Counted from the first letter of the stretch, positions 4,212-59,850 are shown. The stretch is DNA of 64,000 bases from Deltaproteobacteria bacterium (GCA_016874775.1 VGTJ01000001.1:40887-104886); one strand, 5' to 3'. Numbers and translations are program-made. The notes: a model not told the origin generated them from the letters alone.

Positions 4212-4288
4212 GCAGAATCGGAGAAACGGGGAATCGGAGAAGCGGAGAATAAAAAAGGTGGGGCGGTCTCCGGTTCTCCGACTCCCCA
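4212..4288. repeat. intergenic repeat family, copy 2 (cagaatcggagaaacggggaatcggagaagcggagaat...ggttctccgactcccc)
   Basis: It lies between the VOC gene and the amidase start. Confidence 0.55.
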
Positions 4289-4778: not shown

Positions 4779-4905
4779 CGGTCAGCAATTAGCGTTCAGC
4801 TATCAGCTTTTTAGAAAACTATCAGCCTTCAGCTGTCAGCCTCCAGCTGAAACTTCTATTCTATCTTTGCTGGCTGACCGCTGGGCGCTGATAGCTGATA
4901 GCTTC
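4779..4905. repeat. second intergenic repeat family (gttcagctatcagc...cagctgaaa...gctgatagctgatagc), copy 1
   Basis: The terminal inverted repeats are agctatcagc/gctgatagct. A related copy occurs at 48543-48705. Confidence 0.55.
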
Positions 4906-6445: not shown

Positions 6446-8236
6446 ATGACCACCACCGGATTCAAAGCTGAAGGCATTCAATGGAACTTAGGGGAACTTT
6501 ACACCAGCCCAGATGATCCACGTATCGAAGCTGATCTTACCGAAGCACGGCGACAAGCCGAAGCATTCGCGCAAAAGTACCGCGGCAAGCTGGCTGATAA
6601 ACAACTTGATGGCGTAGCGCTGGCGCAAGCATTGCGAGAATATGAAGCGCTGGCTGAAGTCGAACACCGTCCATCGTTCTATGCCAATCTGTTTTTTGCC
6701 GCGGATACGCAAAATCCTAAGGCGCAGCAGCTGGTGCAACGCACTCGCGAAGCCGCCACGGAAACCAGCAACCTGCTCATCTTTTTCTCGCTCGAGGTGA
6801 TCGCTCTCGATGATGAATATGTCGCTCAGCTTGTTGCTGCACCAGCAATGGCGGACTATCTGCACTACGTTGAAGCTTTACGGCGGTTTAAGCCACATAC
6901 GTTGAGTGAGAAAGAAGAGCAGGCGATCAATCAGAAAAATCTCACCGGACGTCACGCCTTTGAACAACTCTATGAAGAACTGACTGGTTCACTGCGGTTC
7001 AAACTGCGGGTCGATGGTGAAGAGAAAGACTTGACCGACGGTGAAGTGATGGCGTTATTACGATCTCCGGACCGAGAGCTGCGCGAACGTGCGTTTACCA
7101 CGTTTCTCGATACCCATGCTCAGCATTCACTGGTCATCACGTCGGTGTTCAACAATATTTTTCTGGACCACAAAGTTGATTGTGAGATGCGGCAGTATGA
7201 TGATGTCGTGCTGCCGACACACCTCTCCAATGAGATTGCGCCGCAGACAGTGGAAGCGATGATGCAAGCGGTCGAACGCCATTATCCACTGGCGCAAGAA
7301 TATTTCCGTATCAAGGCACGCTTGCTTGGGCTCGATACACTCAAGAACACCGATGTGTATGCACCAATTGAGGCGAACGAAGAGAAGCTGACGTTTGCCC
7401 AAGCACAAGAAATGATTCTGACGGCGTTTGGGAAATTCAGCGAGCCGTTTGCAGCCATTGCCAATGACTTTTTCAGTAAACGCTGGATCGATGCCGAAGT
7501 GCGGCCTGGGAAGCGGGGAGGGGCGTTCTGCGCGGCCTTTACCCCTCAACATCATCCGTATGTGTTGTGTAGCTTCAACGGCACTGGTCGTGATGTGTCA
7601 ACCATCGCGCATGAATTAGGTCATGGCATCCATTATTCTCTGGCGCGCAAGCAACGCTTGGTGAATTACGATGCGCCATTGGTACTGGCCGAAACCGCCT
7701 CTGTGTTTGCTGAGATCGTACTTACTAAACACTTGTTAGCTGAAACGTCCAGTAAAGAAGCCAAACGTGCAATCCTGTGTGAGTTACTGGAAGAAATGTA
7801 CGGCACGGTTTTCCGCCAGACCGCGTTGACCCGTTTTGAGATGGCTGGACATCACCAACGTCGCTCAGGGCAACTGACCGCAGACGATATTTGTGAGTTA
7901 TGGTTACAAGAGCAACGCAAAGTATTTGGCGATGGCATTGAACTGATTCCCGCCTATCGTTGGGGATGGACGTATATCTCGCATTTCATTCACAGCCGGT
8001 TCTATTGTTACTCGTACTCGTTTGGTGAGTTGCTGACCTTGGCATTGTTCCAACGTTACCTTGAGGAAGGTGAGTCATTCGTTCCAGGCTACATGCAACT
8101 GCTTGAAAGTGGCGGTTCGCAACGACCTGAAGTCGCACTGGGGAAACTTGGCATCGACATCAACCAGCCCGAGTTCTGGGATCGTGGGTTTAGCGTGGTT
8201 GAGGGGTTTCTAGGAGATTTGCGGGCAACGCTCTGA
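6446..8236 (+). CDS. pepF: M3-family oligoendopeptidase (PepF-like)
   Basis: 596 aa with the HELGHGIHY zinc-binding HExxH motif and M3B architecture. Confidence 0.9.
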   Translation: MTTTGFKAEGIQWNLGELYTSPDDPRIEADLTEARRQAEAFAQKYRGKLADKQLDGVALAQALREYEALAEVEHRPSFYANLFFAADTQNPKAQQLVQRTREAATETSNLLIFFSLEVIALDDEYVAQLVAAPAMADYLHYVEALRRFKPHTLSEKEEQAINQKNLTGRHAFEQLYEELTGSLRFKLRVDGEEKDLTDGEVMALLRSPDRELRERAFTTFLDTHAQHSLVITSVFNNIFLDHKVDCEMRQYDDVVLPTHLSNEIAPQTVEAMMQAVERHYPLAQEYFRIKARLLGLDTLKNTDVYAPIEANEEKLTFAQAQEMILTAFGKFSEPFAAIANDFFSKRWIDAEVRPGKRGGAFCAAFTPQHHPYVLCSFNGTGRDVSTIAHELGHGIHYSLARKQRLVNYDAPLVLAETASVFAEIVLTKHLLAETSSKEAKRAILCELLEEMYGTVFRQTALTRFEMAGHHQRRSGQLTADDICELWLQEQRKVFGDGIELIPAYRWGWTYISHFIHSRFYCYSYSFGELLTLALFQRYLEEGESFVPGYMQLLESGGSQRPEVALGKLGIDINQPEFWDRGFSVVEGFLGDLRATL

Positions 8237-8275
8237 CAACAGTAGTCAGTCTTTAATTCAATTAAAGGAGACCCT

Positions 8276-9250: not shown

Positions 9251-9713
9251 ATTCATACGGCACCTCACATTTAGGAGCCCTATAGTAACCAGCATCGTAG
9301 TGGAGAGTTAAGAGTTAAGAATGGAGGAAAAGAGGGCTCAGCTCTTTCTCAGTTCTTTTTCTGACTCTTCACGCTTCACTCTTAATTCTTCACTGACTTC
9401 CTATTGTTTACTTGTTGTCTGTAACGCCAACTCATCGAGCAATGTCTTGGCTGCCTGTAAGTCGGCAGTGTCGAACCCTTCAGTAAACCATGCGTACACT
9501 TCAGATAACATCCTGTGTGTTTCAGCCAGAGCTGGCAGTTGCGCAGATGATGGTGCGTGAGTCGTGTTGCGTGATGTCCGCTCATCTACTTGATGTTGTC
9601 GCAACCTCGCGAGACTCATCACGGCGCGCAACTCTAGCGATTTGGCGTGCTGTTGTTGAGCGATAGCGATAGCTTTGAGGAAACACTCCTCCACCTCCCG
9701 CATCACCCCATTG

Positions 9714-9786
9714 GGGGCTAGAGACTTGAGACTAGGGGCTTGTGGGGAAAAACCAGTCTCTAACCTCCAGCCTCTAGCCTCCGCGA
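9714..9786. repeat. ~70-bp palindromic element (gagacttg...agcctctagcctcc), copy 1, in-frame inside the regulator TPR region
   Basis: It shares gagacttg, ggggcttg/ccaagcc and agcctctagcctcc with the copy at 12109-12180. It has terminal inverted repeats ggctagag/ctctagcc and encodes the peptide RGWRLETGFSPQAPSLKSLAPNG. Confidence 0.5.
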
Positions 9787-12108: not shown

Positions 12109-12180
12109 GAGAGACTTGTAGGTTTGCAGGAGGGGGAGGGAGGACCAGCCCCAAGCCTCTAGCCTCCAGCCCCAAGGTGG
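12109..12180. repeat. ~70-bp palindromic element, copy 2, coinciding with the frame switch between the winged-helix and ATPase parts of the regulator
   Basis: It encodes PWGWRLEAWGWSSLPLLQTYKSL in the downstream frame, while the upstream winged-helix frame reads through it out of register. Confidence 0.5.
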
Positions 12181-18556: not shown

Positions 18557-18769
18557 TCCTGCCGTCATTCCAGCGAAGGATGGAGGCTCTCAGTTTTTGA
18601 ATTGCTGGAGAAAAATAGAGTCTTTATCAGCACAGATGGTGGGGAGAATTTTACCTCTTTAGGCAATAGACTTTTTGATGCGGATGACTTGAAAATTGAT
18701 CCACAGAATCCGAATAGGCTCTATGCTGTTAAAGCAGGGAGTGGAGTGTACGTGTACGAAAAACAGTAG
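18557..18769 (+). pseudogene. C-terminal relic of a BNR-repeat (sialidase/Ycf48-like) protein
   Basis: A stop-free frame reads ...VFELLEKNRVFISTDGGENFTSLGNRLFDADDLKIDPQNPNRLYAVKAGSGVYVYEKQ*. It has a BNR-like S-x-D-x-G motif and no start codon, and the remainder of the gene would overlap the aminotransferase. Confidence 0.4.
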
Positions 18770-19370
18770 GGGGAGAGGTGGAAGTGATGGATCGTCTTGT
18801 GGGTTGGGTAATACGTATCTCGTGAAGTCATTGTACTTTTTCTCAAGCGTAGTCTGAGGTAAGGCTGCAGGCTGTTCCCAGCAAATTTAGTGACTGCGCC
18901 GGAAACGCTTTGCTTATTCCGGCCTACCTTTTGCGCACTTCACGTTGATAGTGAGCGAGCGCTCTGCTGAAGCAAATCCAAATACCACCAGTGTGAAGGT
19001 GAGGCGTTCGCGCGTTGGCGGAGTTCCGGCATGGGAGCGATTTCAGCGAGCCGAGTCAGTGCGATGGGAGTGGCAGTTAGCAGACGGGCGTCTGCTTCTT
19101 CCGACTGTCGCTGTTGATCGAAGGAAAGGTCAGCTTCTTTCTCCGCCAGAGTACTACGAGTGGTAAGAAGGTCGAGCCATGATCAGACAGACGCTCGGAT
19201 TTCGGAATTGGTATGGCCCGGTCAATATGCCGAACAATATCCAAGTCTGTCAATAAACTGGAGTCGGGTGGGTCATGGCTCGCCCGACTATGTCTGTGTC
19301 TAAGCGTGCCGGAGTTGCACTTCCCTTCTGTGTCCCGCACACTGGTTAAGTCTCTAAGTTGGAGGTTGAT

Positions 19371-19988
19371 ATGACAACAGCTCAATCTGATGAGAGTGGG
19401 ATGCAGCCGATGATTTTACACACGCGGCCAACGCTCGATATGAACGACGAACTTTTTTTCGATTTCTGTCGAACCAATCGCGAATGGCGGATCGAACGGA
19501 CTGCGGACGGAGAGGTGCAAATCATGCCACCAACCGGATGGGAAACTGGCACGTATAACTCTCGCCTCACTGCCTTCGTCACAATGTGGGCGCTACAAGA
19601 GGGGACTGGAGTCGCGACTGACTCTTCCACCGGCTTCACTCTGCCGAATGGAGCGATTCGCTCGCCTGATGTCGCATGGGTAAAGCGCTCACGACTTGTC
19701 ACACTCACGCCGGGACAAAAGCAGCGGTTTCTTCCTCTTTGCCCTGACTTTGTCATTGAGCTGCGCTCTGCTTCTGACCATTTGCGGACGTTGCAAAACA
19801 AAATGCAAGAATACGTGGATAATGGAGCGCAGTTGGGATGGTTGTTCGATGCACCGAATCGACGCGTCTACGTTTATCGACCCGGCAAAGCGGTCGAGTG
19901 CTTGGAAAATCCTGCGACGATCTTGGGAGGTCCCGAACTGCCGGGTCTTGAGATTGACGTGGCGAAAATTTGGACGTCGGATTTTTAG
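19371..19988 (+). CDS. Uma2-family (DUF820) PD-(D/E)XK-like putative endonuclease
   Basis: A GGAGG Shine-Dalgarno precedes the start. The sequence FFDFCRTNREWRIERTADGEVQIMPP...PDVAWV... has the Uma2-family layout. Confidence 0.8.
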   Translation: MTTAQSDESGMQPMILHTRPTLDMNDELFFDFCRTNREWRIERTADGEVQIMPPTGWETGTYNSRLTAFVTMWALQEGTGVATDSSTGFTLPNGAIRSPDVAWVKRSRLVTLTPGQKQRFLPLCPDFVIELRSASDHLRTLQNKMQEYVDNGAQLGWLFDAPNRRVYVYRPGKAVECLENPATILGGPELPGLEIDVAKIWTSDF

Positions 19989-21392: not shown

Positions 21393-21417
21393 GTCATTCT
21401 GAGCGAGGCGAAGAATC
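21393..21417. repeat. solo hairpin repeat gtcattctgagcgaggcgaagaatc
   Basis: It has the same gtcattc...gaatc hairpin consensus as the first half of the composite elements. Further solo copies lie at 18564-18590 and 38720-38780. Confidence 0.5.
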
Positions 21418-23630: not shown

Positions 23631-24506
23631 ATGACTGAAACCACCGGAACCCTCCTCGATGGAAAAGCGGTAGCACAGACCGTACGGCAAACTGTTAAAG
23701 TTGGAGTTGCGCAGTTTCTTGACCGACATGGATATGTCCCAGGCTTAGCGACCGTGTTGGTCGGTGATGATCCAGCCTCGCGTGTATACGTCAGTACAAA
23801 GGAAAAGGCATGCCAGGAAGTTGGCATTCGTTCTTGTCCACATCGACTTCCTGCCTCAACCGCAGCGAAGGAAGTGCTACAACTCATCAATGAATTGAAC
23901 CAATGTCGCGACGTGCACGGTATTTTAGTGCAGTTGCCGTTGCCTGCACATTTGGATCAGCGGGCTCTCATTTTGGCGCTGGCTCCGGAGAAAGATGTTG
24001 ATGGCCTCCACCCGTTCAATCAAGGGCGACTGGTGTTAGGGGAAGATGCGTTACGTCCCTGTACACCACTCGGAGTAATGCGGCTCATTGAACATACGGG
24101 TATGTCACTGACGGGAAAAAAAGCTATTGTCATTGGGCGCAGTATGTTGGTCGGCAAGCCTGTGGCACTGATGCTCCTTGAACAAAATGCGACAGTGACC
24201 TGTTGCCACTCAAAAACTGTCGATCTTGCTGGGGAAGTGCGAGCTGCTGATGTCGTCGTTGCCGCGATCGGACAACCGGAGGCGATCAAGGGAGATTGGA
24301 TCAAGCCAGGGGCGGTGGTGATTGATGTAGGAATCTCGCGTATGACTGACAATAAACTCAGAGGGGACGTGGAATTTACTGTGGCGAAAGAACGTGCCTC
24401 GTTTATCACGCCCGTTCCTGGTGGAGTTGGACCGATGACCGTTGCGATGTTACTCGCGAATACGTTGAAGGCCACGGAGAGAATAAGTAGTCAGCATTCA
24501 CAGTAG
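23631..24506 (+). CDS. folD: bifunctional methylenetetrahydrofolate dehydrogenase/cyclohydrolase
   Basis: PGLATVLVGDDPASRVYVSTKEKAC is the FolD signature. Confidence 0.9.
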   Translation: MTETTGTLLDGKAVAQTVRQTVKVGVAQFLDRHGYVPGLATVLVGDDPASRVYVSTKEKACQEVGIRSCPHRLPASTAAKEVLQLINELNQCRDVHGILVQLPLPAHLDQRALILALAPEKDVDGLHPFNQGRLVLGEDALRPCTPLGVMRLIEHTGMSLTGKKAIVIGRSMLVGKPVALMLLEQNATVTCCHSKTVDLAGEVRAADVVVAAIGQPEAIKGDWIKPGAVVIDVGISRMTDNKLRGDVEFTVAKERASFITPVPGGVGPMTVAMLLANTLKATERISSQHSQ

Positions 24507-24617
24507 TCAGTAGGAAAAGAAGGGCATCCGTAGGCAGAGTAGAGGAAGGAGCATTGATCATGAGCACTATTTTATGCTGGCTACTGGCTACCGACTACTG
24601 GCTACTCTGAGGTTTGT

Positions 24618-25703
24618 ATGCCCAAACGCACTCCTCTCTACGATACTCATCGATCTCTTGGGGCTCGCGTGATCGAGTTCGGCGGCTGGGATATGCCGGT
24701 GCAATACAGTGGCATCCTTGCCGAGCATCACGCTGTACGGACCAAGGCTGGTCTGTTTGATCTGAGCCATATGGGTGAGATTGAGGTCAGTGGGCCTCAT
24801 GCACTTGAGGCGTTGCAAGAACTGGTTGTGACAGATGTTGCTCGTGTCCAACTGGGCCAAGCGCAATACGCGCTGATGTGTTATCCTGACGGTGGCATTG
24901 TCGATGACATTATCATTTATCGCCAGGCTGAAGATCGCTTCTTTGTTTGCGTGAACGCTGCCAATATCGACAAAGACTTTGCGTGGATGACAGAACATAA
25001 TCGCCTCAAGGCGGTGATGGTTGATCACAGTGACGAATATGCTCTTATTGCTGTCCAGGGACCAATGGCTGTCGCGATCGTGCAACGCTTGACTTCGCTC
25101 AATCTGGCACAGATCAAACGCTATTGGTTTGCAATGGGAGAAGTCGCCGGAGTGCAGGCTCTGGTTGCGCGCACTGGTTACACTGGAGAAGACGGATTTG
25201 AGTTGTTTGTTGCTGCTGACCAAGCCGTGAAAGTATGGAACGCGTGTCTGGAAGCGGGCCAGTCTGACGGTCTTTTGCCGATTGGCTTGGGTGCGCGAGA
25301 CACATTGCGCCTCGAAGCCGCGTATATGTTGTACGGCAATGATATCGATGCGCAAACGACTCCTTTAGAAGCAGGGCTACAGCGACTTGTCAGGTTTGAA
25401 AAACCTGCGTTTCTCGGACGGGACGCGCTGTCGCAGCAACAGTCGACGGGAATAGGCAAACAATTTGTTGGTTTGAGCATGGATGAAGCTGGTATTCCTC
25501 GACATGGGTACTCGTTGTGGCACGATGGCCAGCGCGTTGGGGTAGTGACGAGCGGGACACAGTCCCCCTCGCTTGGCGTTGGCATTGCGCTAGGGTACGT
25601 TCCTCCTGCGGGCGCTGCGGTGGGAACGTCACTAACAGTGGAGATCCGTGGTCGACAGGTACGAGCGCATATCGTAACACGACCATTTTATCGCAAGGGA
25701 TGA
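24618..25703 (+). CDS. gcvT: glycine cleavage system T protein (aminomethyltransferase)
   Basis: RTPLYDTHRSLGARVIEFGGWDMPVQY...AGLFDLSHMG matches GcvT. Confidence 0.9.
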   Translation: MPKRTPLYDTHRSLGARVIEFGGWDMPVQYSGILAEHHAVRTKAGLFDLSHMGEIEVSGPHALEALQELVVTDVARVQLGQAQYALMCYPDGGIVDDIIIYRQAEDRFFVCVNAANIDKDFAWMTEHNRLKAVMVDHSDEYALIAVQGPMAVAIVQRLTSLNLAQIKRYWFAMGEVAGVQALVARTGYTGEDGFELFVAADQAVKVWNACLEAGQSDGLLPIGLGARDTLRLEAAYMLYGNDIDAQTTPLEAGLQRLVRFEKPAFLGRDALSQQQSTGIGKQFVGLSMDEAGIPRHGYSLWHDGQRVGVVTSGTQSPSLGVGIALGYVPPAGAAVGTSLTVEIRGRQVRAHIVTRPFYRKG

Positions 25704-25713
25704 GTAGACGGAG

Positions 25714-26103
25714 GTGGCTATGGAATTCCCCAAAGGGCTGCGATACTCGCAGGAACATGAGTGGGTTGCGGTAGACGGTGATATTGCGACCATTGGCATT
25801 ACGGATTATGCGCAGGAGCAACTCGGTGATGTGGTCTATGTCGAGTTGCCTGCGGTTGGCAAAGCCCTCAACAAAGCTGATACGTTAGGGGTTATCGAGT
25901 CGGTGAAAGCGGTGTCTGACATCTACGCTCCAGTGGGCGGAACCGTGACCGAAATAAATGCAGATCTCCCCAACGCTCCAGAAACTGTCAATGCAGATCC
26001 CTATGGCAAGGCGTGGGTGGTGCGCTTACGTCTGAGCAATCCGCAAGAAGTGAACGAACTGATGGATGCCGCGGCATATGAAAAATTTGTTGCGGAAGCG
26101 TAG
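25714..26103 (+). CDS. gcvH: glycine cleavage system H protein
   Basis: ESVKAVSDIYAPVGGTVTEIN contains the lipoyl-lysine region. Confidence 0.9.
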   Translation: MAMEFPKGLRYSQEHEWVAVDGDIATIGITDYAQEQLGDVVYVELPAVGKALNKADTLGVIESVKAVSDIYAPVGGTVTEINADLPNAPETVNADPYGKAWVVRLRLSNPQEVNELMDAAAYEKFVAEA

Positions 26104-26137
26104 TGATTAACCAGGAAAGTATGGATAACCTGAGGAC

Positions 26138-26226
26138 CGTCATTCCCGCGAAAGCGGGAATCTAGGATAATTAACCTCTAGCCTTGACTTGAAGTTCCTG
26201 GATGCCCGCCTTCGCGGGCATGACGG
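26138..26226. repeat. composite two-hairpin intergenic element (gtcattcccgcgaaagcgggaatc, spacer, cctggatgcccgccttcgcgggcatgacgg), copy 1
   Basis: It sits inside the gcvH-gcvPA intergenic region. A second copy with the same two-part layout occurs at 57453-57543. Confidence 0.6.
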
Positions 26227-26297
26227 GCGAGTTCTCCTCAAATTTCATTAGACAAACTCCCAGACTTTTTAGACTCCCGGACTCTTCGACTTTATTT

Positions 26298-27647
26298 ATG
26301 CGTTACATTCCCCATACTGACAGTGATATTGCGTTCATGCTGGCAACAATCGGTGCGGGCTCAGTTGCTGACTTATTTGCGCACCTGCCTGAAGCTCTCC
26401 GTTCACAAGCAGCGATCGATTTGCCGCTTGGCTTATCTGAAGCCGGAGTGCGATCTCGCTTAACGGAACTGGCAGCGACAAACCGTGTCAGTCCCGAGAC
26501 CGTCGCGTTTCTTGGAGCAGGAGCCTACCCGCACTTCGTTCCTGTAGTGGTCGACCAGATCATTCAACGTTCTGAATTCGCCACTGCCTATACGCCCTAC
26601 CAACCTGAAGTGAGCCAGGGAACGCTACAGACGATTTTCGAGTTTCAGTCACTGGTTGCGATGTTGTTCGGTTTAGACGTTGCCAATGCCAGTATGTATG
26701 ATGGTGCGTCGGCGACTGCAGAAGCTGTGTTGATGACCAAACGCCTGCTGCCACAACGGACGACAGTGCTCGTGGCGCGCTCGCTCCATCCGCAATATCG
26801 GCAAGTGATTCAGACCTATCTTGATGGCGTATCTGGCTTACAGATTGTCGAGATCCCGTGGGGAGCAGATGGACGGGTGGATCTCTCTCAATTGTCACGC
26901 CATTTAGATAACACCGTCTGTGGTGTCCTTGTCGGCTATCCCAATGTGTTTGGTGTGGTTGAAGATGTTGCCGCTATTAGTGAGGCGGCCCATAAAGCTG
27001 GCGCACTGATGGCAACGTCAACTGCTGAGGCGCTTGCGTTAGGATTGCTCAAATCTCCAGGTGAACTGGACGTCGATATTGCTGTCGCCGAAGGGCAGAG
27101 CTTCGGCATTCCGGTGTCATATGGTGGCCCTGGGGTCGGACTCTTTGCGTGTCGTGAACGTTTCTTGCGGAGTATGCCGGGACGCCTGGCCGGTGAAACC
27201 GTCGATCATGATGGGCGCCGCGGTTTTGTCTTGACACTCTCCACGCGTGAACAACATATTCGTCGCGAGAAAGCGACTTCCAACATTTGTACGAACCAGG
27301 GGCTCTGCTCGTTGGCAGCAACTGTCTATCTCTGTCTCATGGGAAAACAGGGACTGCGAGAGCTTGCCGAACGGAATGTCAAGAAAAGCCACTATGCGTG
27401 CGACTTGTTGACGCAAACCGCCAATTACCAACAGCAATTCTCTGCACCCTTCTTTAACGAATTCGTGGTGAACGTGCCGAATGCGCGTGCCACATGGCAG
27501 CGATTACAGGGGCAAGGGATTGTTGCCGGAGTGGTGCTTGAAGATTGGTACCCTGAATTGAAAGACTGTTTGCTATTGTGCGTGACGGAGATGCATACTC
27601 GTGGTGAGATTGAACAGTTAGCAGATGAACTGAAACGTAATGCGTAA
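26298..27647 (+). CDS. gcvPA: glycine dehydrogenase (decarboxylating) subunit 1
   Basis: The start is at the internal ATG 26298, giving MRYIPHTDSD.... It is a P-protein N-terminal subunit homolog. Confidence 0.9.
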   Translation: MRYIPHTDSDIAFMLATIGAGSVADLFAHLPEALRSQAAIDLPLGLSEAGVRSRLTELAATNRVSPETVAFLGAGAYPHFVPVVVDQIIQRSEFATAYTPYQPEVSQGTLQTIFEFQSLVAMLFGLDVANASMYDGASATAEAVLMTKRLLPQRTTVLVARSLHPQYRQVIQTYLDGVSGLQIVEIPWGADGRVDLSQLSRHLDNTVCGVLVGYPNVFGVVEDVAAISEAAHKAGALMATSTAEALALGLLKSPGELDVDIAVAEGQSFGIPVSYGGPGVGLFACRERFLRSMPGRLAGETVDHDGRRGFVLTLSTREQHIRREKATSNICTNQGLCSLAATVYLCLMGKQGLRELAERNVKKSHYACDLLTQTANYQQQFSAPFFNEFVVNVPNARATWQRLQGQGIVAGVVLEDWYPELKDCLLLCVTEMHTRGEIEQLADELKRNA

Positions 27648-27717
27648 AACGTAATACGTAACCGCCTCTCGTCCCCTCTTACGAATTACGGATGACGTGC
27701 AATTTGTGACAACAGCA

Positions 27718-29196
27718 ATGAAAAAAAGAACATTACTGGACGAATCTCTCATCTTCGAACGTAGCTCACCAGGCCGTGTCGGTTACTCATTGCCAGAAGA
27801 CGACCTGCCAGAAAGGCAACTCTTACAGGATGTTCCTGTTGATCTGTGCCGTACCGCGCTTGCGGATTTTCCTGAAGTCAGTGAAGGTGAAATCGTTCGC
27901 CATTTTACGCGCTTGTCGCAGTGGAATCTGAGCGCGGCGACGACGCTGTACCCGCTGGGCTCGTGCACCATGAAATATAACCCTATCGTCAATGAGTTAG
28001 TCGCACGGTTCGCTGGATTGGCCCAACTCCATCCTTTGGTGCCAGATGAGTTCGCCCAGGGAGCGCTTGCCTTGCTGTACGATCTTCAGCACCGCCTTGC
28101 CGAAGTCAGTGGTATGGATGCGATAAGTCTGCAGCCTGCAGCCGGTGCCCAGGGTGAACTGACGGGTATGAAGTTAATCCGCGCACATCATGTCGAGCAG
28201 GGGCGACCACGCAAGAAAGTCCTCATTCCTGGGAGTGCGCACGGTACGAATCCAGCCTCAGCCGCATTGTGTGGCTATACAGTGACAGAAGTTCCGACTG
28301 GGGTAGGTGGCATGCTTGAAGCAGCGACTGTCGCGAAGCATGTTGATGATGAAGTTGCAGCACTGATGGTGACAAATCCGAATACACTCGGCTTGTTTGA
28401 GCGCGAGATCGTGCAGACTTGTGAAGTGCTGCATGCGCGGGGCGCATTGGTGTACATGGACGGCGCCAACCTGAATGCGCTCATGGGTGTAGCGAAACCC
28501 GGTCATATGGGCGCAGATGTTATCCAGTTTAATCTGCACAAAACGTTCTCCACGCCACATGGCGGTGGTGGACCTGGGGCTGGTCCTGTCGGGGTCAAAA
28601 AGATTCTGGAACCATACTTGCCAAATCCACGGGTGGTGAAAGAACGTGGGCAGTATCGATGGAGCAATGACTTTCCTCGATCGATTGGCAAGGTTCGGTC
28701 ATTCTACGGCAACTTTGGTATTCTCGTTCGTGCCTATGCGTACATCCTGGCCATGGGAAGCGATGGACTGACTCAGGCAACGCACATGGCTGTGCTCAAT
28801 GCGAATTATCTGCGTAAACGCCTCGAACACGAATTCACCATTGCCGAAGCGACGCCGTGTATGCATGAATGCGTGTTCTCTGACCGTTCATTTACGCACT
28901 CGGGGGTGAAGACGCTAGATATCGCCAAACGTCTCCTCGACTATGGCTTCTATGCGCCCACGATCTATTTCCCACTGGTTGTGAGTGGTGCGTTGATGAT
29001 TGAGCCGACCGAGACTGAGAGCAAAGAAGCACTCGATGAATTTGCTGACGCACTGCTCGCCATTGCGCAAGAGATCAAAGACAACCCTGATACACTCAAG
29101 AACGCGCCGTTACTCACTCCCGTCAGCCGCCTCGACGAAACCCGCGCTGCACGGCATCCGGTGCTGCGGTGGCGGAAAGAACCAATGAAAAATTAA
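27718..29196 (+). CDS. gcvPB: glycine dehydrogenase (decarboxylating) subunit 2
   Basis: The PLP region is LHKTFSTPHGGGGPG. The start is probably at ATG 27718. Confidence 0.9.
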   Translation: MKKRTLLDESLIFERSSPGRVGYSLPEDDLPERQLLQDVPVDLCRTALADFPEVSEGEIVRHFTRLSQWNLSAATTLYPLGSCTMKYNPIVNELVARFAGLAQLHPLVPDEFAQGALALLYDLQHRLAEVSGMDAISLQPAAGAQGELTGMKLIRAHHVEQGRPRKKVLIPGSAHGTNPASAALCGYTVTEVPTGVGGMLEAATVAKHVDDEVAALMVTNPNTLGLFEREIVQTCEVLHARGALVYMDGANLNALMGVAKPGHMGADVIQFNLHKTFSTPHGGGGPGAGPVGVKKILEPYLPNPRVVKERGQYRWSNDFPRSIGKVRSFYGNFGILVRAYAYILAMGSDGLTQATHMAVLNANYLRKRLEHEFTIAEATPCMHECVFSDRSFTHSGVKTLDIAKRLLDYGFYAPTIYFPLVVSGALMIEPTETESKEALDEFADALLAIAQEIKDNPDTLKNAPLLTPVSRLDETRAARHPVLRWRKEPMKN

Positions 29197-29364
29197 AAAT
29201 GAAGAATGAAGAATTGGAAAAGGGAAAAGTACTGCTCTCTTTTTCCGTGGCCCCTTTCTGCATTTTTAATTCTTCCTTTTTCATTTTGTATTCTTGGCGC
29301 TTTCCTTGACAAAACTCTCGATTCACTCTAGGGGCTAGGTATCCTTGTTCGTAGGAGCAACTGT

Positions 29365-38127: not shown

Positions 38128-38236
38128 TATACACTATGTAGTGTTGTCTAGAGTCCAGCCCGTAAGGGCTGTTGGTTGTGGTGGATGTGGCGATCAAGGA
38201 AGTGATCCTTGGTCAGAAAGGGTAGGAGGCTTCAGT

Positions 38237-38656
38237 ATGAAGGACCAACGTGTCGCGGATGGGGGAGCAGGCGTTTTCCAGCCGGATTTTCTTCTTCCTC
38301 TCCAATTCTTCACCGGGACCCGTGGAAAAGGATGTGGCGAAGGCGAGCGTCGTTTGATGCTGGCCATCTTGGAAGATGCGGTTGATTGTTTCCAGAAATA
38401 TCTGGGAACGCGGGAAAGTCGCGGTCGACTGCTTTGCTCTGATGCTGAGGAGTGGTTTATGTCAGATGACCGCAGTTGGCTGTTCTCATTCGTCAATGTC
38501 TGCGAAGTGCTCGGATTACAGCCCGACTTTATTCGTGAAGGGTTACAGGACTGGAAGACGAGACAGCTGGAAAAAGCATTGTCACCAAAGCCACCGGTAG
38601 CAGATGGACCAACACAAGCAAGAGGTCGAAAACGGGGGACGTTGGTGGCGGCGTAA
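38237..38656 (+). CDS. hypothetical protein (139 aa), no family recognised
   Basis: A strong Shine-Dalgarno GGTAGGAGG precedes the start. The protein has a helical, acidic core (RRLMLAILEDAVDCFQKYLG...AEEWFMSDDRSWLFSFVNVCEVLGLQPDF) and a basic tail. The overlapping S-rich minus ORF 38194..38910 is judged a shadow ORF. Confidence 0.45.
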   Translation: MKDQRVADGGAGVFQPDFLLPLQFFTGTRGKGCGEGERRLMLAILEDAVDCFQKYLGTRESRGRLLCSDAEEWFMSDDRSWLFSFVNVCEVLGLQPDFIREGLQDWKTRQLEKALSPKPPVADGPTQARGRKRGTLVAA

Positions 38657-38701: not shown

Positions 38702-38854
38702 CGGTAACTCCTCACAATGGTCATTCTGAGCAACGCGAGGAATGTGTCAGTAAGACTCTTCGCTACGCTCAGAGTGACGTTGTCGTTGTCCAGGTCACTT
38801 GAGACCTGACTGCGTGCGGCCAACTCGACAGAGCAAGCAACGAACGAACCGTTC

Positions 38855-47307: not shown

Positions 47308-47775
47308 ATGGCAGAACAGCAACTCTATTTTGAAGATGTGACGATAGGTACCGCGCTTCCTGAAGTGCGCAAAATGCCATCGAATACCCTGTTGTTTCTC
47401 TATAGTGCCATCACCTGGAACCCGCAGCGAATTCACTTTGATAAAGATTTCACGCTATCCGAAGGCTATCGCGATATCATCGTGCATGGACCATTGCGGG
47501 GAGCGTTTCTCTCTCAACTGATGACGCGGTGGATCGGCGACGCAGGAATGCTCAAGAAACTCTCGTATGCGAATCGCGACATTGCCTATGTTAACGAGCC
47601 GCTTCTTTGTAAAGGAACGGTAACACGTACCTGGATCACTGACGGAAAAGGGTACGCTGAGTGTGAGATTTGGGCTGAAAATACTCAAGGGGTAAAACTC
47701 ACGTTGGGGAATGCCACTGTGATTCTGCCACGAAGGAGTCCTGAGTCCAAAGTCCAAAGTCCAAAGTCTTCGTAA
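47308..47775 (+). CDS. MaoC-like (R)-specific hydratase/dehydratase subunit
   Basis: YSAITWNPQRIHFDKDFTLSEGYRDIIVHGPL is the MaoC catalytic hotdog. It is paired with the upstream gene, as in HadAB-type heterodimers. Confidence 0.8.
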   Translation: MAEQQLYFEDVTIGTALPEVRKMPSNTLLFLYSAITWNPQRIHFDKDFTLSEGYRDIIVHGPLRGAFLSQLMTRWIGDAGMLKKLSYANRDIAYVNEPLLCKGTVTRTWITDGKGYAECEIWAENTQGVKLTLGNATVILPRRSPESKVQSPKSS

Positions 47776-48542: not shown

Positions 48543-48705
48543 AGCGTTCAGCTATCAGCGCTCAGCGAAAACAGCGGGCAGTTGGCAACGATCAGCGGCA
48601 AAGATCTGTCCCTCTCAACGACCTGCGTCATCTGAGCAGCAACACCAGATTTGCTATATTTCCTTCTCTGGCTGAAAGCTGACTGCTGAAAGCTTGAGGC
48701 TGGCT
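48543..48705. repeat. second intergenic repeat family, copy 2 (gcgttcagctatcagcgctcagcg...ggctgaaagctgactgctgaaagc)
   Basis: It begins with the same 16-mer as copy 1, contains gctgaaag direct repeats, and sits upstream of the ferritin-like gene. Confidence 0.5.
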
Positions 48706-49544: not shown

Positions 49545-49600
49545 TCACCTATTTTCTTCCCTATGGCCTGTAGCCTACAGCCTATAGCCTTTGCCTCTCG

Positions 49601-56666: not shown

Positions 56667-57428
56667 ATGTGGCTTCGCGTACGACAAATCGCCTTGATTG
56701 CACGACAGTTGGCTCCAGTTGTTGACGATATCAAAGATGTGTTTGGCCTTGAGGTGGCGTTTCGTGACCCAGCGGTGAAAGTGTTCGGGCTGGAGAACGC
56801 GGTGTTCCCGATTGGCAACCAGTTTCTTGAAGTGGTCTCACCGATTAAAGAAGGTACGGCTGGTGGACGGTATCTTGATCGCCGTAATGGTGACGGTGGT
56901 TACATGGTGATCTGCCAGTGTGATGATGAAGAGCCACGTAAAAAACGTGTAGCTGAACTAGGGGTTCGCAAGGCGATGGAACACGATGAGCCGGAGATGC
57001 GTATTATGCAGCTTCATCCACGCGATACTGGTGGATGTTTCCTGGAGATCGATCAGCAACTTGGTGACACGAGTGAGTGGATGCCTGCTGGAAAGAATTG
57101 GAAATCGGCGGTTCGTACTGAGATCGTTCGTGGTATTGCTGCGGCAGAAATCCAAACGCCTGATCCAACAGAGCTTGCTGAACGCTGGGGGAAAATCGTA
57201 GAACTACCTGTGAATGACAATGCCGCTGGGCAGGCGAATCTGCACTTTGATAATGCTGACGTGCGCTTTGTCAAAGATACCGATGGCCGTGGGGAAGGAC
57301 TTGGTGGGGTCGATCTGATCGTTGCCAATCGCGAGAAGTTGCTTGCTGCAGCGGAACGGCGTGGTAAACGCGTCGCTGATGATATGGTCAATATTTGCGG
57401 TGTGCGTTTTCGGTTGGTGGAGAAGTAG
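56667..57428 (+). CDS. VOC/glyoxalase-like domain protein
   Basis: IALIARQLAPVVDDIKDVFGLEV...AVFPIGNQFLEVVSP is a VOC beta-alpha-beta-beta-beta module. Confidence 0.6.
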   Translation: MWLRVRQIALIARQLAPVVDDIKDVFGLEVAFRDPAVKVFGLENAVFPIGNQFLEVVSPIKEGTAGGRYLDRRNGDGGYMVICQCDDEEPRKKRVAELGVRKAMEHDEPEMRIMQLHPRDTGGCFLEIDQQLGDTSEWMPAGKNWKSAVRTEIVRGIAAAEIQTPDPTELAERWGKIVELPVNDNAAGQANLHFDNADVRFVKDTDGRGEGLGGVDLIVANREKLLAAAERRGKRVADDMVNICGVRFRLVEK

Positions 57429-57452: not shown

Positions 57453-57543
57453 CGTCATTCCCTCGGAAGCGAGAATCCAGGAGGAATAATCAAGAGCTTC
57501 TGCTTGAGGTCCCTGGACGCCCGCCTGCGCGGGCATGACGGAC
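57453..57543. repeat. composite two-hairpin intergenic element, copy 2 (gtcattccctcggaagcgagaatcc, spacer, ccctggacgcccgcctgcgcgggcatgacgg)
   Basis: It has the same two-part layout as the copy at 26138-26226. It lies between convergent genes. Confidence 0.6.
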
Positions 57544-57565: not shown

Positions 57566-58237
57566 TTAACCGAGTGTTGGCTTTCTCCAGGCCTCGATTC
57601 CCAACGCCACAACCCACACCATCAACAACACACTTGCTGGCATATTGATGAGCATGGAAAGGTCCGAGAACCCTGTATACGCGATGGCAATCCCCGCGAT
57701 CGCTGTTGGAATGCCGCTCACCATCGCCAATGCTCCGAGCCAGCGCGGAAAGCGCTGGTCAAGAACTAACGCGATACCATAAACCACGACTGTCAGTCCG
57801 AAGAGGATGCTGCTCATGCTGGCAAGCCCGATCTCAATTTGCCGCACGGCGAAGGTCGCGTGAAAGAGCGATGTTTTCTCTGGCTCTGTCGCTGCGGCCC
57901 AGTGATCCACCATAATCTTGAGAGCTACGCCATCAACTGCTTGTAGCGCTGTTGCCAGAGATAAGCTCGCGCCTGCACCGATTCTTATGACAGGCACCCA
58001 GAGTGCGGTTGGTCCATCCTCCAGCGTGTGAGAGAACAATACGAGCGCTGCGAGCAGTAATATGACACCGAGCAACTGCGCCAGATGACTGGCGACCCAG
58101 TGCGGATCGGCGGCATATTCGCCGAATGCTGCTACCGGTACATTGGGGTCTGCGCTCATTGGATGCAGAAAGGTACCGATCAACAACAGACCCGCACCAA
58201 GAATGGCCACGATCAAGCCGATTTTTCCATTTGGCAT
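57566..58237 (-). CDS. integral membrane protein of unknown function (6 predicted TM)
   Basis: 223 aa, hydrophobic throughout, with no recognisable catalytic motif. Confidence 0.55.
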   Translation of the reverse strand: MPNGKIGLIVAILGAGLLLIGTFLHPMSADPNVPVAAFGEYAADPHWVASHLAQLLGVILLLAALVLFSHTLEDGPTALWVPVIRIGAGASLSLATALQAVDGVALKIMVDHWAAATEPEKTSLFHATFAVRQIEIGLASMSSILFGLTVVVYGIALVLDQRFPRWLGALAMVSGIPTAIAGIAIAYTGFSDLSMLINMPASVLLMVWVVALGIEAWRKPTLG

Positions 58238-59728: not shown

Positions 59729-59850
59729 CGGGGAAAAACAAAAGCTGAAATGGAGAATCGGGGAAACGGGGAATCGGTGACAATAGGGAACAGGAGTTTT
59801 TTATTCTCCGATTCTCCCTGTCTCCGCTTCCCCGCTTCCCCTTCTCCTCT
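59729..59850. repeat. intergenic repeat family, copy 3 (core ggagaatcggggaaacggggaatcggtgacaa ... ctccgattctcc)
   Basis: It shares the core with copies at about 697-775 and 4212-4288. The inverted arms are ggagaatcgg/ccgattctcc. It lies between the adaptor and RND pump genes. Confidence 0.6.

Follow-up and report, generated by a model that had tools for sequence, protein, structure and literature searches.

The element considered here, of about 90 bp, occurs twice in a 64-kb window, a term used throughout for the whole stretch of DNA that was analysed. Copy A lies inside the 194-nt spacer between gcvH and gcvPA in a glycine-cleavage operon, the genes of which were assigned with Pfam (gcvT, 24618-25703; gcvH, 25714-26103; gcvPA, 26298-27647; gcvPB, 27697-29196). 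Copy B is flanked by two convergent genes, specifying a Glyoxalase_3 protein (56667-57428, + strand) and a DUF4386 protein (57566-58237, - strand), and these gene coordinates agree with the placement of both copies in the original prediction. In many bacteria, a glycine riboswitch stands in front of gcvT. Neither a glycine riboswitch nor any other Rfam family was found above threshold anywhere in the window (positions 1-64000), and the spacer upstream of gcvT, between folD and gcvT (~24507-24617), holds an array of the heptamer CTGGCTA. A MAG labelled "Deltaproteobacteria bacterium" has a protein with 100% identity to the GcvPA of the window, for which the next closest sequences carry the label Candidatus Binatia. 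Five relatives (GcvPA identity, 83-87%) lack the element in their gcvH-gcvPA spacer, and the spacers of these closest relatives cannot be aligned to that of the window. From such comparisons, made at 83-87% protein identity and with spacers that do not align, copy A appears to be an insertion at this junction.

A repeat search of the window recovered 26138-26226 and 57453-57541 as direct copies of 89 nt with 79% identity, in keeping with the prediction of a ~90-bp element at both sites. Each copy had been described as two distinct hairpins, but the 24-nt core GTCATNCCCGCGAANGCGGGNATC has four matches in the window (0.00 expected), at 26139-62 (+), 26201-24 (-), 57454-77 (+) and 57516-39 (-), and its occurrence on both strands in each copy shows that the two hairpins are one 28-nt motif, present as inverted copies. 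Each element consists of a unit on the + strand, a spacer measuring 32 nt (about 30 nt had been predicted) and a unit on the - strand, and with units of 28 nt this gives a doublet of about 88-89 nt (Table 1). When the window was searched with a covariance model derived from 53 units in other genomes, only these four units were significant (E 3e-13 to 5e-8); nhmmer returned the same four and nothing else of significance.

Table 1. Coordinates of the repeat units, spacers and associated features in the window.
Feature	Position	Strand	Basis or remark
Degenerate left shell arm, copy A	26101-26137	+	Begins at the gcvH stop codon TAG (26101-26103)
NTS/CGTC-1 REP unit A-left (T:A type)	26138-26165	+	0 mismatches to NTS; SRM pattern match
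Doublet A spacer	26166-26197	+	Consensus GCAGnTTAACCnnnGGCTTCTGCTTGAnnTTC; alignments
NTS/CGTC-1 REP unit A-right (G:C type), CGTCATGCCCGCGAAGGCGGGCATCCAG	26198-26225	-	SRM pattern match
Degenerate right shell arm, copy A (CCTCAAATTTCATTAGAC...CCCAG)	26226-26263	+	Aligns to consensus CCCCTCAAAnTCAAnTnGACTGAGTACTAG
NTS unit B-left (T:A type), decayed, CGTCATTCCCTCGGAAGCGAGAATCCAG	57453-57480	+	Covariance model, 32.7 bits
Doublet B spacer	57481-57512	+	Conserved with the doublet A spacer
NTS unit B-right (G:C type), CGTCATGCCCGCGCAGGCGGGCGTCCAG	57513-57540	-	Covariance model, 39.7 bits
Decayed 5' half of an NTS unit (CCGTCATTCCAGCGAAGG)	18562-18579	+	Edge of a 1.4-kb insertion
Second repeat type, singleton (GTCATTCTGAGCGAGGCGAAGAAT), not NTS/SRM	21393-21416	+	Motif search, fold, covariance model
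Second repeat type, head-to-head doublet	38720-38778	38720-38743 +, 38755-38778 -	11-nt spacer

The left unit of copy A (covariance model, 48 bits, E 6e-13) is composed of a CGTC tag, the hairpin ATTCCCGC-GAAA-GCGGGAAT, a C and a TAG tail, and folds as single-stranded DNA at -9.0 kcal/mol (z -4.0). Its right-hand partner (49 bits, E 3e-13; hairpin, -10.3 kcal/mol) has the G:C-type layout CGTC, ATGCCCGC, GAAG, GCGGGCAT, CCA. In both doublets stem position 3 is T:A in the left unit and G:C in the right one, and as a result both local hairpins are perfect, while a long hairpin formed by the whole doublet acquires fixed mismatches. The spacer of copy A is conserved with that of copy B and with those of the copies from other genomes described below (L119 and about 20 metagenome copies).

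Both elements are head-to-head pairs of CGTC-1 REPs (NTS/SRM units), a known family and not a new structured RNA. The CGTC-1 family includes the dRS3 repeats of Neisseria and RPE-6 of Rickettsia (Di Nocera, De Gregorio and Rocco 2013, BMC Genomics, PMC3733652); its members carry a CGTC tag, an 8-bp stem starting with AT, a 4-nt loop and a tail close to CCA, and are found mostly as extragenic head-to-head dimers, with the tags outside and spacers of 20-100 bp (PMC3733652). The units of the window have every one of these features and both copies are intergenic head-to-head dimers, so that the suggestion of a REP/MITE-like family is upheld. The dRS3 pattern ATTCCC-N8-GGGAAT is found exactly at 26142-26161 and with 1 mismatch at 57457-57476, and the G:C-type units do not fit it.

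The 28-nt Neisseria Transformation Sequence (NTS), CGTCATTCCCGCGMAVGCGGGAATCYRG, encompasses dRS3 (Chenal et al. 2025, Nat Commun, PMC11893778). SsnA, a small GIY-YIG nuclease, binds the NTS when it is folded into a hairpin as ssDNA and cuts one strand only, a few nucleotides 5' of the CGTC tag, with dsDNA and RNA left untouched; cleavage depends critically on the GTC that precedes the palindrome, and binding on the C that follows it (PMC11893778). Hairpin recognition with upstream cleavage of ssDNA has been shown for the Neisseria enzyme and three homologues, the cleavage affects integration of transforming DNA, and in many phyla an ssn gene typically has NTS or SRM motifs on either side of it (NTS-ssnA-NTS; PMC11893778). 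When an NTS is taken to have at most one mismatch to CGTCATTCCCGCGMAVGCGGGAATCYRG (PMC11893778), only one of the four units in the window qualifies, that at 26138-26165, the other three having 2 (unit A-right), 3 and 3 (units B-left and B-right) mismatches; the two in A-right are the compensated pair. The broader pattern of the Ssn-related motif (SRM), HGTCWYN(0-2)YYVSBRHN(0-5)WNVSBRGN(0-2)RNCYNB, fits three of the four (0.46 expected), B-left being the one that does not. Both the GTC in front of the palindrome and the C behind it are retained in every unit, and three of the units fold as a hairpin in ssDNA, unit B-right at -8.7 kcal/mol; B-left is decayed, with most of its hairpin lost (-3.1 kcal/mol, z -0.7).

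The original prediction also listed three solo half-copies of the first hairpin, of which one holds in part. The sequence at 18562-18579 has 1 mismatch over 18 nt (0.09 expected) and is a decayed half-unit, forming no hairpin and with a covariance-model E of 1.4. It borders a segment of ~1.4 kb (18570-19985) that the syntenic L001 and L002 lack, their aminotransferase and MFS genes being directly adjacent; the segment carries a fragment of a BNR-like gene (18602-18769) and a gene for a Uma2-family endonuclease (19371-19988; PF05685, E 4e-40). The sites at 21393 and 38720-38780 belong to a different repeat family, GTCAYTCTGAGC-N3-GCGARGART, with three matches in the window (0 expected), which fits neither the covariance model of the units nor the SRM pattern. 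Taken singly, its units fold weakly (z about 0), but the doublet (38715-38783) can form a long hairpin of -14.8 kcal/mol (z -3.6). This second repeat has a tag-like GTC and 5+2 bp with a tandem G.A; its geometry of 8 bp with a 5-nt loop resembles that of CGTC-2, by description only, and it is also present at L002:14122-14145, L029:6791-6814 and L093:7739-7762.

Units of the window's type are found in hundreds of copies in other genomes, and an exact-pattern scan limited to one genome per species gave at least 120 loci. The labels among the matches listed include Alpha-, Beta-, Gamma- and Deltaproteobacteria, Neisseria, Bacteroidota, Planctomycetota, Dehalococcoidia, Acidobacteriota, Verrucomicrobiota, Gemmatimonadota, Nitrospirota, Binatia and others; MAG labels are unverified, and several of the matched contigs are chromosome-level assemblies. 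Among these listed loci, at least 218 strict units formed 48 HH, 7 TT and 4 HT dimers, the HH spacers ranging from 20 to 91 nt, and the tag was CGTC in 269 of 287 units and the tail CCA in 237 of 287. The sites are depleted in coding sequence (29% lie in ORFs, against a coding fraction of 84%). That two GC-rich hairpins came to resemble each other by chance is refuted by this dispersal, by the 79% identity over 89 nt, spacer included, and by the four core matches where 0.00 are expected.

Compensatory change in the stems had been claimed in the form cccgcg/cgcggg against ctgagc/gctcag, but this sets an intra-unit stem beside the inter-unit pairing of another family, and the singleton at 21393 has no gctcag partner. 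Genuine compensatory changes lie elsewhere, as T:A in one unit of a doublet against G:C in the other at the third stem position, and as swaps among independent units of other genomes. Conservation of the stem in copies elsewhere, on which the prediction had been made to depend, is borne out by a pairing test free of ascertainment: in 46 units outside the scan pattern, recovered by their anchors only, 5.52 of the 6 inner-stem positions are paired, compared with 4.91 for shuffled partners (maximum of 500 shuffles, 5.13), with T:A/C:G, C:G/G:C and G:C/A:T swaps among them. This excess over shuffles marks the local unit hairpin as a conserved structure. RNAalifold, applied to 25 copies of the doublet subfamily, gave no covariation in the core, since the core is nearly invariant, and for that reason one long hairpin and two local hairpins cannot be told apart by this method.

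A different reading places the function in RNA, the hairpin at the gcvH-gcvPA junction being kept because it sets the stoichiometry of the subunits, either by blocking 3'-5' decay of gcvT-gcvH or by attenuating read-through into gcvPA/PB; this would be compatible with a DNA-level origin, as an exaptation. As RNA, doublet A folds into one long hairpin (-51.6 kcal/mol, z -6.4; doublet B, -43.2 kcal/mol, z -2.5), and the whole gcvH-gcvPA spacer folds at -66.6 kcal/mol (z -3.6). All five of the relatives have an unrelated but equally strong hairpin in that spacer (-40 to -72 kcal/mol, z -3.1 to -7.4), which makes an effect on gcv mRNA possible and suggests that a hairpin here is tolerated or wanted. 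The depletion of the sites in coding sequence and the general enrichment of REPs downstream of genes (PMC3733652) point in the same direction. Against it, copy B and the copy in L119 lie between convergent genes and other copies in unrelated contexts, and the long hairpin has its fixed mismatches exactly at the compensated positions of the local unit hairpins. Between 25600 and 26500 there is no site with the intrinsic-terminator pattern (a GC-rich stem followed by a T-run) and no promoter pattern, and Rfam 15 gave no match in the window at the gathering threshold, the sole sub-threshold match being FtrB (22 bits against a threshold of 66). Hairpin-forming heptamer or octamer arrays occupy many spacers of this genome, so that a hairpin is not specific to gcv and the hairpins of the relatives are weak evidence for a role at the junction. 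Overall, an RNA-level function appears rather unlikely. The proposal of a small structured RNA is not favoured, the doublets occurring at unrelated loci, being absent in the five relatives, having no Rfam counterpart and belonging to a family whose partner protein acts on ssDNA only.

The arrays deserve mention in their own right and may be more unusual than the doublets themselves. Many intergenic spacers of the window contain tandem arrays with a 7-8-nt period, often as inverted pairs able to form long hairpins, with motifs that include GAATCGGG, CCAGCCT, CTGGCTA, AAACGTA, AATGAAA and AGTCCAA; they are found at 694-727, 4214-4250, 4822-4903, 9304-9394, 9753-9782, 12145-12171, 24577-24606, 27633-27661, 29184-29295, 47744-47768, 48543-48568, 49572-49590 and 59747-59841. 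The gcvH-gcvPA hairpins of the relatives (L153:1362-1500, L155:571-702, L156:1386-1500, L001:9877-10000 and L002:9879-10000) are inverted octamer arrays of the form (GGAGTCTA)n...(TAGACTCC)n or (GGAGGCTA)n...(CAGCCTCC)n, in which the octamer differs by lineage and the architecture is constant. In the window, 26250-26290 holds right-arm octamers only, adjoining the inserted element. Cyanobacterial STRRs are short tandem repeats of heptamers, and the likeness to them is loose: both are tandem 7-8-nt repeats confined to intergenic DNA, but those of the window form inverted pairs with long hairpins and belong to another phylum.

The doublet has been dispersed as a unit. L119, a contig of a groundwater MAG, has the same doublet, spacer included, between unrelated convergent genes, and a metagenome scan with the spacer and right unit as query yielded 30 contigs that represent about 20 distinct loci with sharp borders. 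Alignment of these ~20 copies delimits a longer element of ~185 nt, beyond the ends of which the DNA is unrelated. In this shell the doublet is enclosed by a left arm, CTAGTAGTCnGTCA..TTTGAnGGGT, and a right arm, ACCCCTCAAA..GACTGAGTACTAG, which pair in 64-77% of cells with some covariation; the ends are TIR-like (CTAGTAGTCnGTC / GACTGAGTACTAG) with CTAG or TA at the termini, and six near-identical shells have six different flanks. Copy A seems to retain degenerate arms (~26101-26263) of a shell of ~165-185 nt, the left one assigned from a moderate similarity to copies of the L126/L139 type (TAGT..CCAGGAAGT..ATGGATA). Copy B has almost none and, like the doublet at 225-312 of L160, is bare.

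The common ends, the unrelated DNA outside them, the pairing of the arms and the near-identical shells in different flanks could mean that the shell is the true mobile unit, a MITE whose CTAGTAGTCnGTC TIRs are recognised by a DDE transposase that duplicates TA or CTAG, with the doublet as cargo. This is improbable given that armless doublets exist, that no clear target-site duplication emerges from the ends of the ~20 copies, where CTAG or TA could either be duplicated target or belong to the repeat, and that no transposase with such ends was found. The motif AGTAGTCAG, moreover, occurs alone in spacers of the window without being enriched (5 matches, 2.8 expected), and the arms may therefore represent a preferred target outside the element proper. 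Lone copies of AGTAGTCAG(TC), the same as the terminal repeat of the shell, lie at 8239-8251, 24486-24512 and 1977-1989, and stand just after or across stop codons (the folD stop at 24504-24506 and an ORF stop at 8234-8236).

A pair of inverted REPs also brings to mind the REPIN/RAYT systems associated with Bertels and Rainey, Nunvar, and Ton-Hoang, in which the RAYT (REP-associated Y1/HUH transposase, IS200/IS605 family) mobilises the repeats. A REPIN is indeed built in this way, from inverted REPs that are separated by a short spacer and fold together into a hairpin (PMC6006769), but here the 5' tag is CGTC and not GT[AG]G, published surveys report no RAYT with CGTC units beside it, and CGTC-1 REPs had no known dedicated transposase (PMC3733652). 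Around the units of the 120 listed loci there is no recurrent transposase family, and all-against-all clustering of the neighbouring ORFs returned housekeeping families only (SDR, ABC transporters, response regulators, T2SSE and dihydrolipoyl dehydrogenase). No RAYT-like ORF was found in the window by tblastn, a weak test with an E. coli RAYT as query, and the genes that the units do bracket are GIY-YIG genes. Mobilisation by a RAYT is accordingly very improbable.

The bracketed genes point to a possible origin of the doublets. On L146, doublets of the window's type at 97-184 and 613-700 enclose a GIY-YIG gene of 96 aa (226-516, - strand; PF01541, E 4e-15). Homologues with 75-79% identity are present on L158, from a Binatia MAG, and on L161 and L162, from "Deltaproteobacteria" MAGs, where a T:A unit and an inverted G:C unit bracket the gene closely, at distances of 10 nt from the ATG and 4 nt from the stop codon, and this heterodimer is the same T:A plus G:C pair that forms the doublets of the window. 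A window-type doublet lies 42 nt upstream of an Ssn-like gene on L160, from the same assembly as L119, with four more doublets within 6.3 kb, and L061 (Sphingorhabdus) has an NTS-GIY-YIG-NTS arrangement. Established ssn genes encode small single-domain GIY-YIG proteins of cd10448, and the proteins of these loci are candidate members of that family and candidate homologues of N. meningitidis SsnA. The 64-kb window itself has no ssn or GIY-YIG homologue. An ORF beside the second-type doublet (38141-38656) was considered as a GIY-YIG candidate and dismissed as noise, having weak tblastn matches and no Pfam match. Searched against PDB sequences, the GIY-YIG protein matched nothing beyond WD40 entries, through composition, and UPF0213, weakly and once. 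On L158 (959-3322) and L160 (3001-6291), the Ssn-like gene and NTS units lie among components of diversity-generating retroelements, the neighbours being FGE-sulfatase-fold genes, bAvd and RVT_1.

Since units and doublets surround GIY-YIG genes in relatives, the doublets of the window are read here as gene-less miniatures of NTS-ssn-NTS: CGTC-1/NTS pairs that are probably non-autonomous and maintained as ssDNA sites for Ssn. This reading builds on the motif identity, the doublet architecture, the dispersal, the absence at the orthologous site and the unit-flanked candidate ssn genes of relatives, all directly supported. A head-to-head pair would provide one functional Ssn site on each strand, with predicted cut points just outside the pair and on opposite strands. 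An Ssn encoded elsewhere in the genome could act on the doublets, provided that the gene is present and its product cleaves, and might process ssDNA at these sites during replication, repair or DNA uptake. The non-autonomous doublets may have spread into intergenic DNA by some such means, sometimes inside the ~185-nt palindromic shell. When transcribed, a doublet would become a very stable RNA hairpin, presumably a by-product and not the reason for the existence of the element, and at gcvH-gcvPA this hairpin may substitute for that of the relatives.

No mechanism of spread is known for NTS repeats, and a hydrolytic GIY-YIG nuclease is not a transposase. It could be speculated that the doublet, with or without its shell, derives from NTS-ssn-NTS, is copied by way of the outside Ssn cuts, and in Binatia-like bacteria replaces native octamer hairpins of operon spacers such as that at gcvH-gcvPA. 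The idea is tentative and likelier to be wrong than right, but if true, it would give the first case of a GIY-YIG single-strand nuclease behind a MITE-like family. More generally, the description of Ssn dates from 2025, and this locus suggests that NTS/SRM extends into Binatia-like soil and groundwater bacteria; a gene-less doublet with the T:A plus G:C pairing that brackets candidate ssn genes in relatives also bears on how NTS repeats multiply. For annotation, riboswitch, sRNA and terminator are all unsuitable labels for the strong hairpin within the gcv operon.

Among the systems with which the doublets can be compared, REPIN/RAYT is similar in that REP hairpins disperse as inverted pairs, that a gene present in single copy lies between REPs of its own (REPtron), and that hairpins are recognised in ssDNA. 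It differs in its tag, GT[AG]G as opposed to CGTC, and in its enzyme, an HUH/Y1 transposase as opposed to a hydrolytic GIY-YIG nuclease. The likeness to CGTC-1 REPs extends over tag, stem, loop, tail and head-to-head dimers, and heterodimers also occur in some species; in Halothiobacillus neapolitanus the CGTC-1 dimers likewise lie within a larger palindrome (PMC3733652). The CGTC-1 survey recorded five phyla, and in the present study exact matches were found on contigs labelled as many more, these MAG labels being unverified; the arms and spacer of the window subfamily are lineage-specific. As to the NTS/SRM system, the natural-transformation role of NTS is shown for N. meningitidis only, and Neisseria NTS form NIME-type clusters, unlike the doublets of the window. 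The host here is a Binatia-like soil or groundwater MAG and not Neisseria or a symbiont, its 64-kb window is without an ssn gene, and its units form tight T:A plus G:C heterodimers with a conserved 32-nt spacer, often, in other copies, in a palindromic shell of ~185 nt. Yet 26138-26165 is identical to the 28-nt NTS consensus, the units are intergenic and have the same directional layout of CGTC tag, 8-bp palindrome, C and YRG, and in related MAGs they bracket small single-domain GIY-YIG genes, in the manner of NTS-ssnA-NTS.
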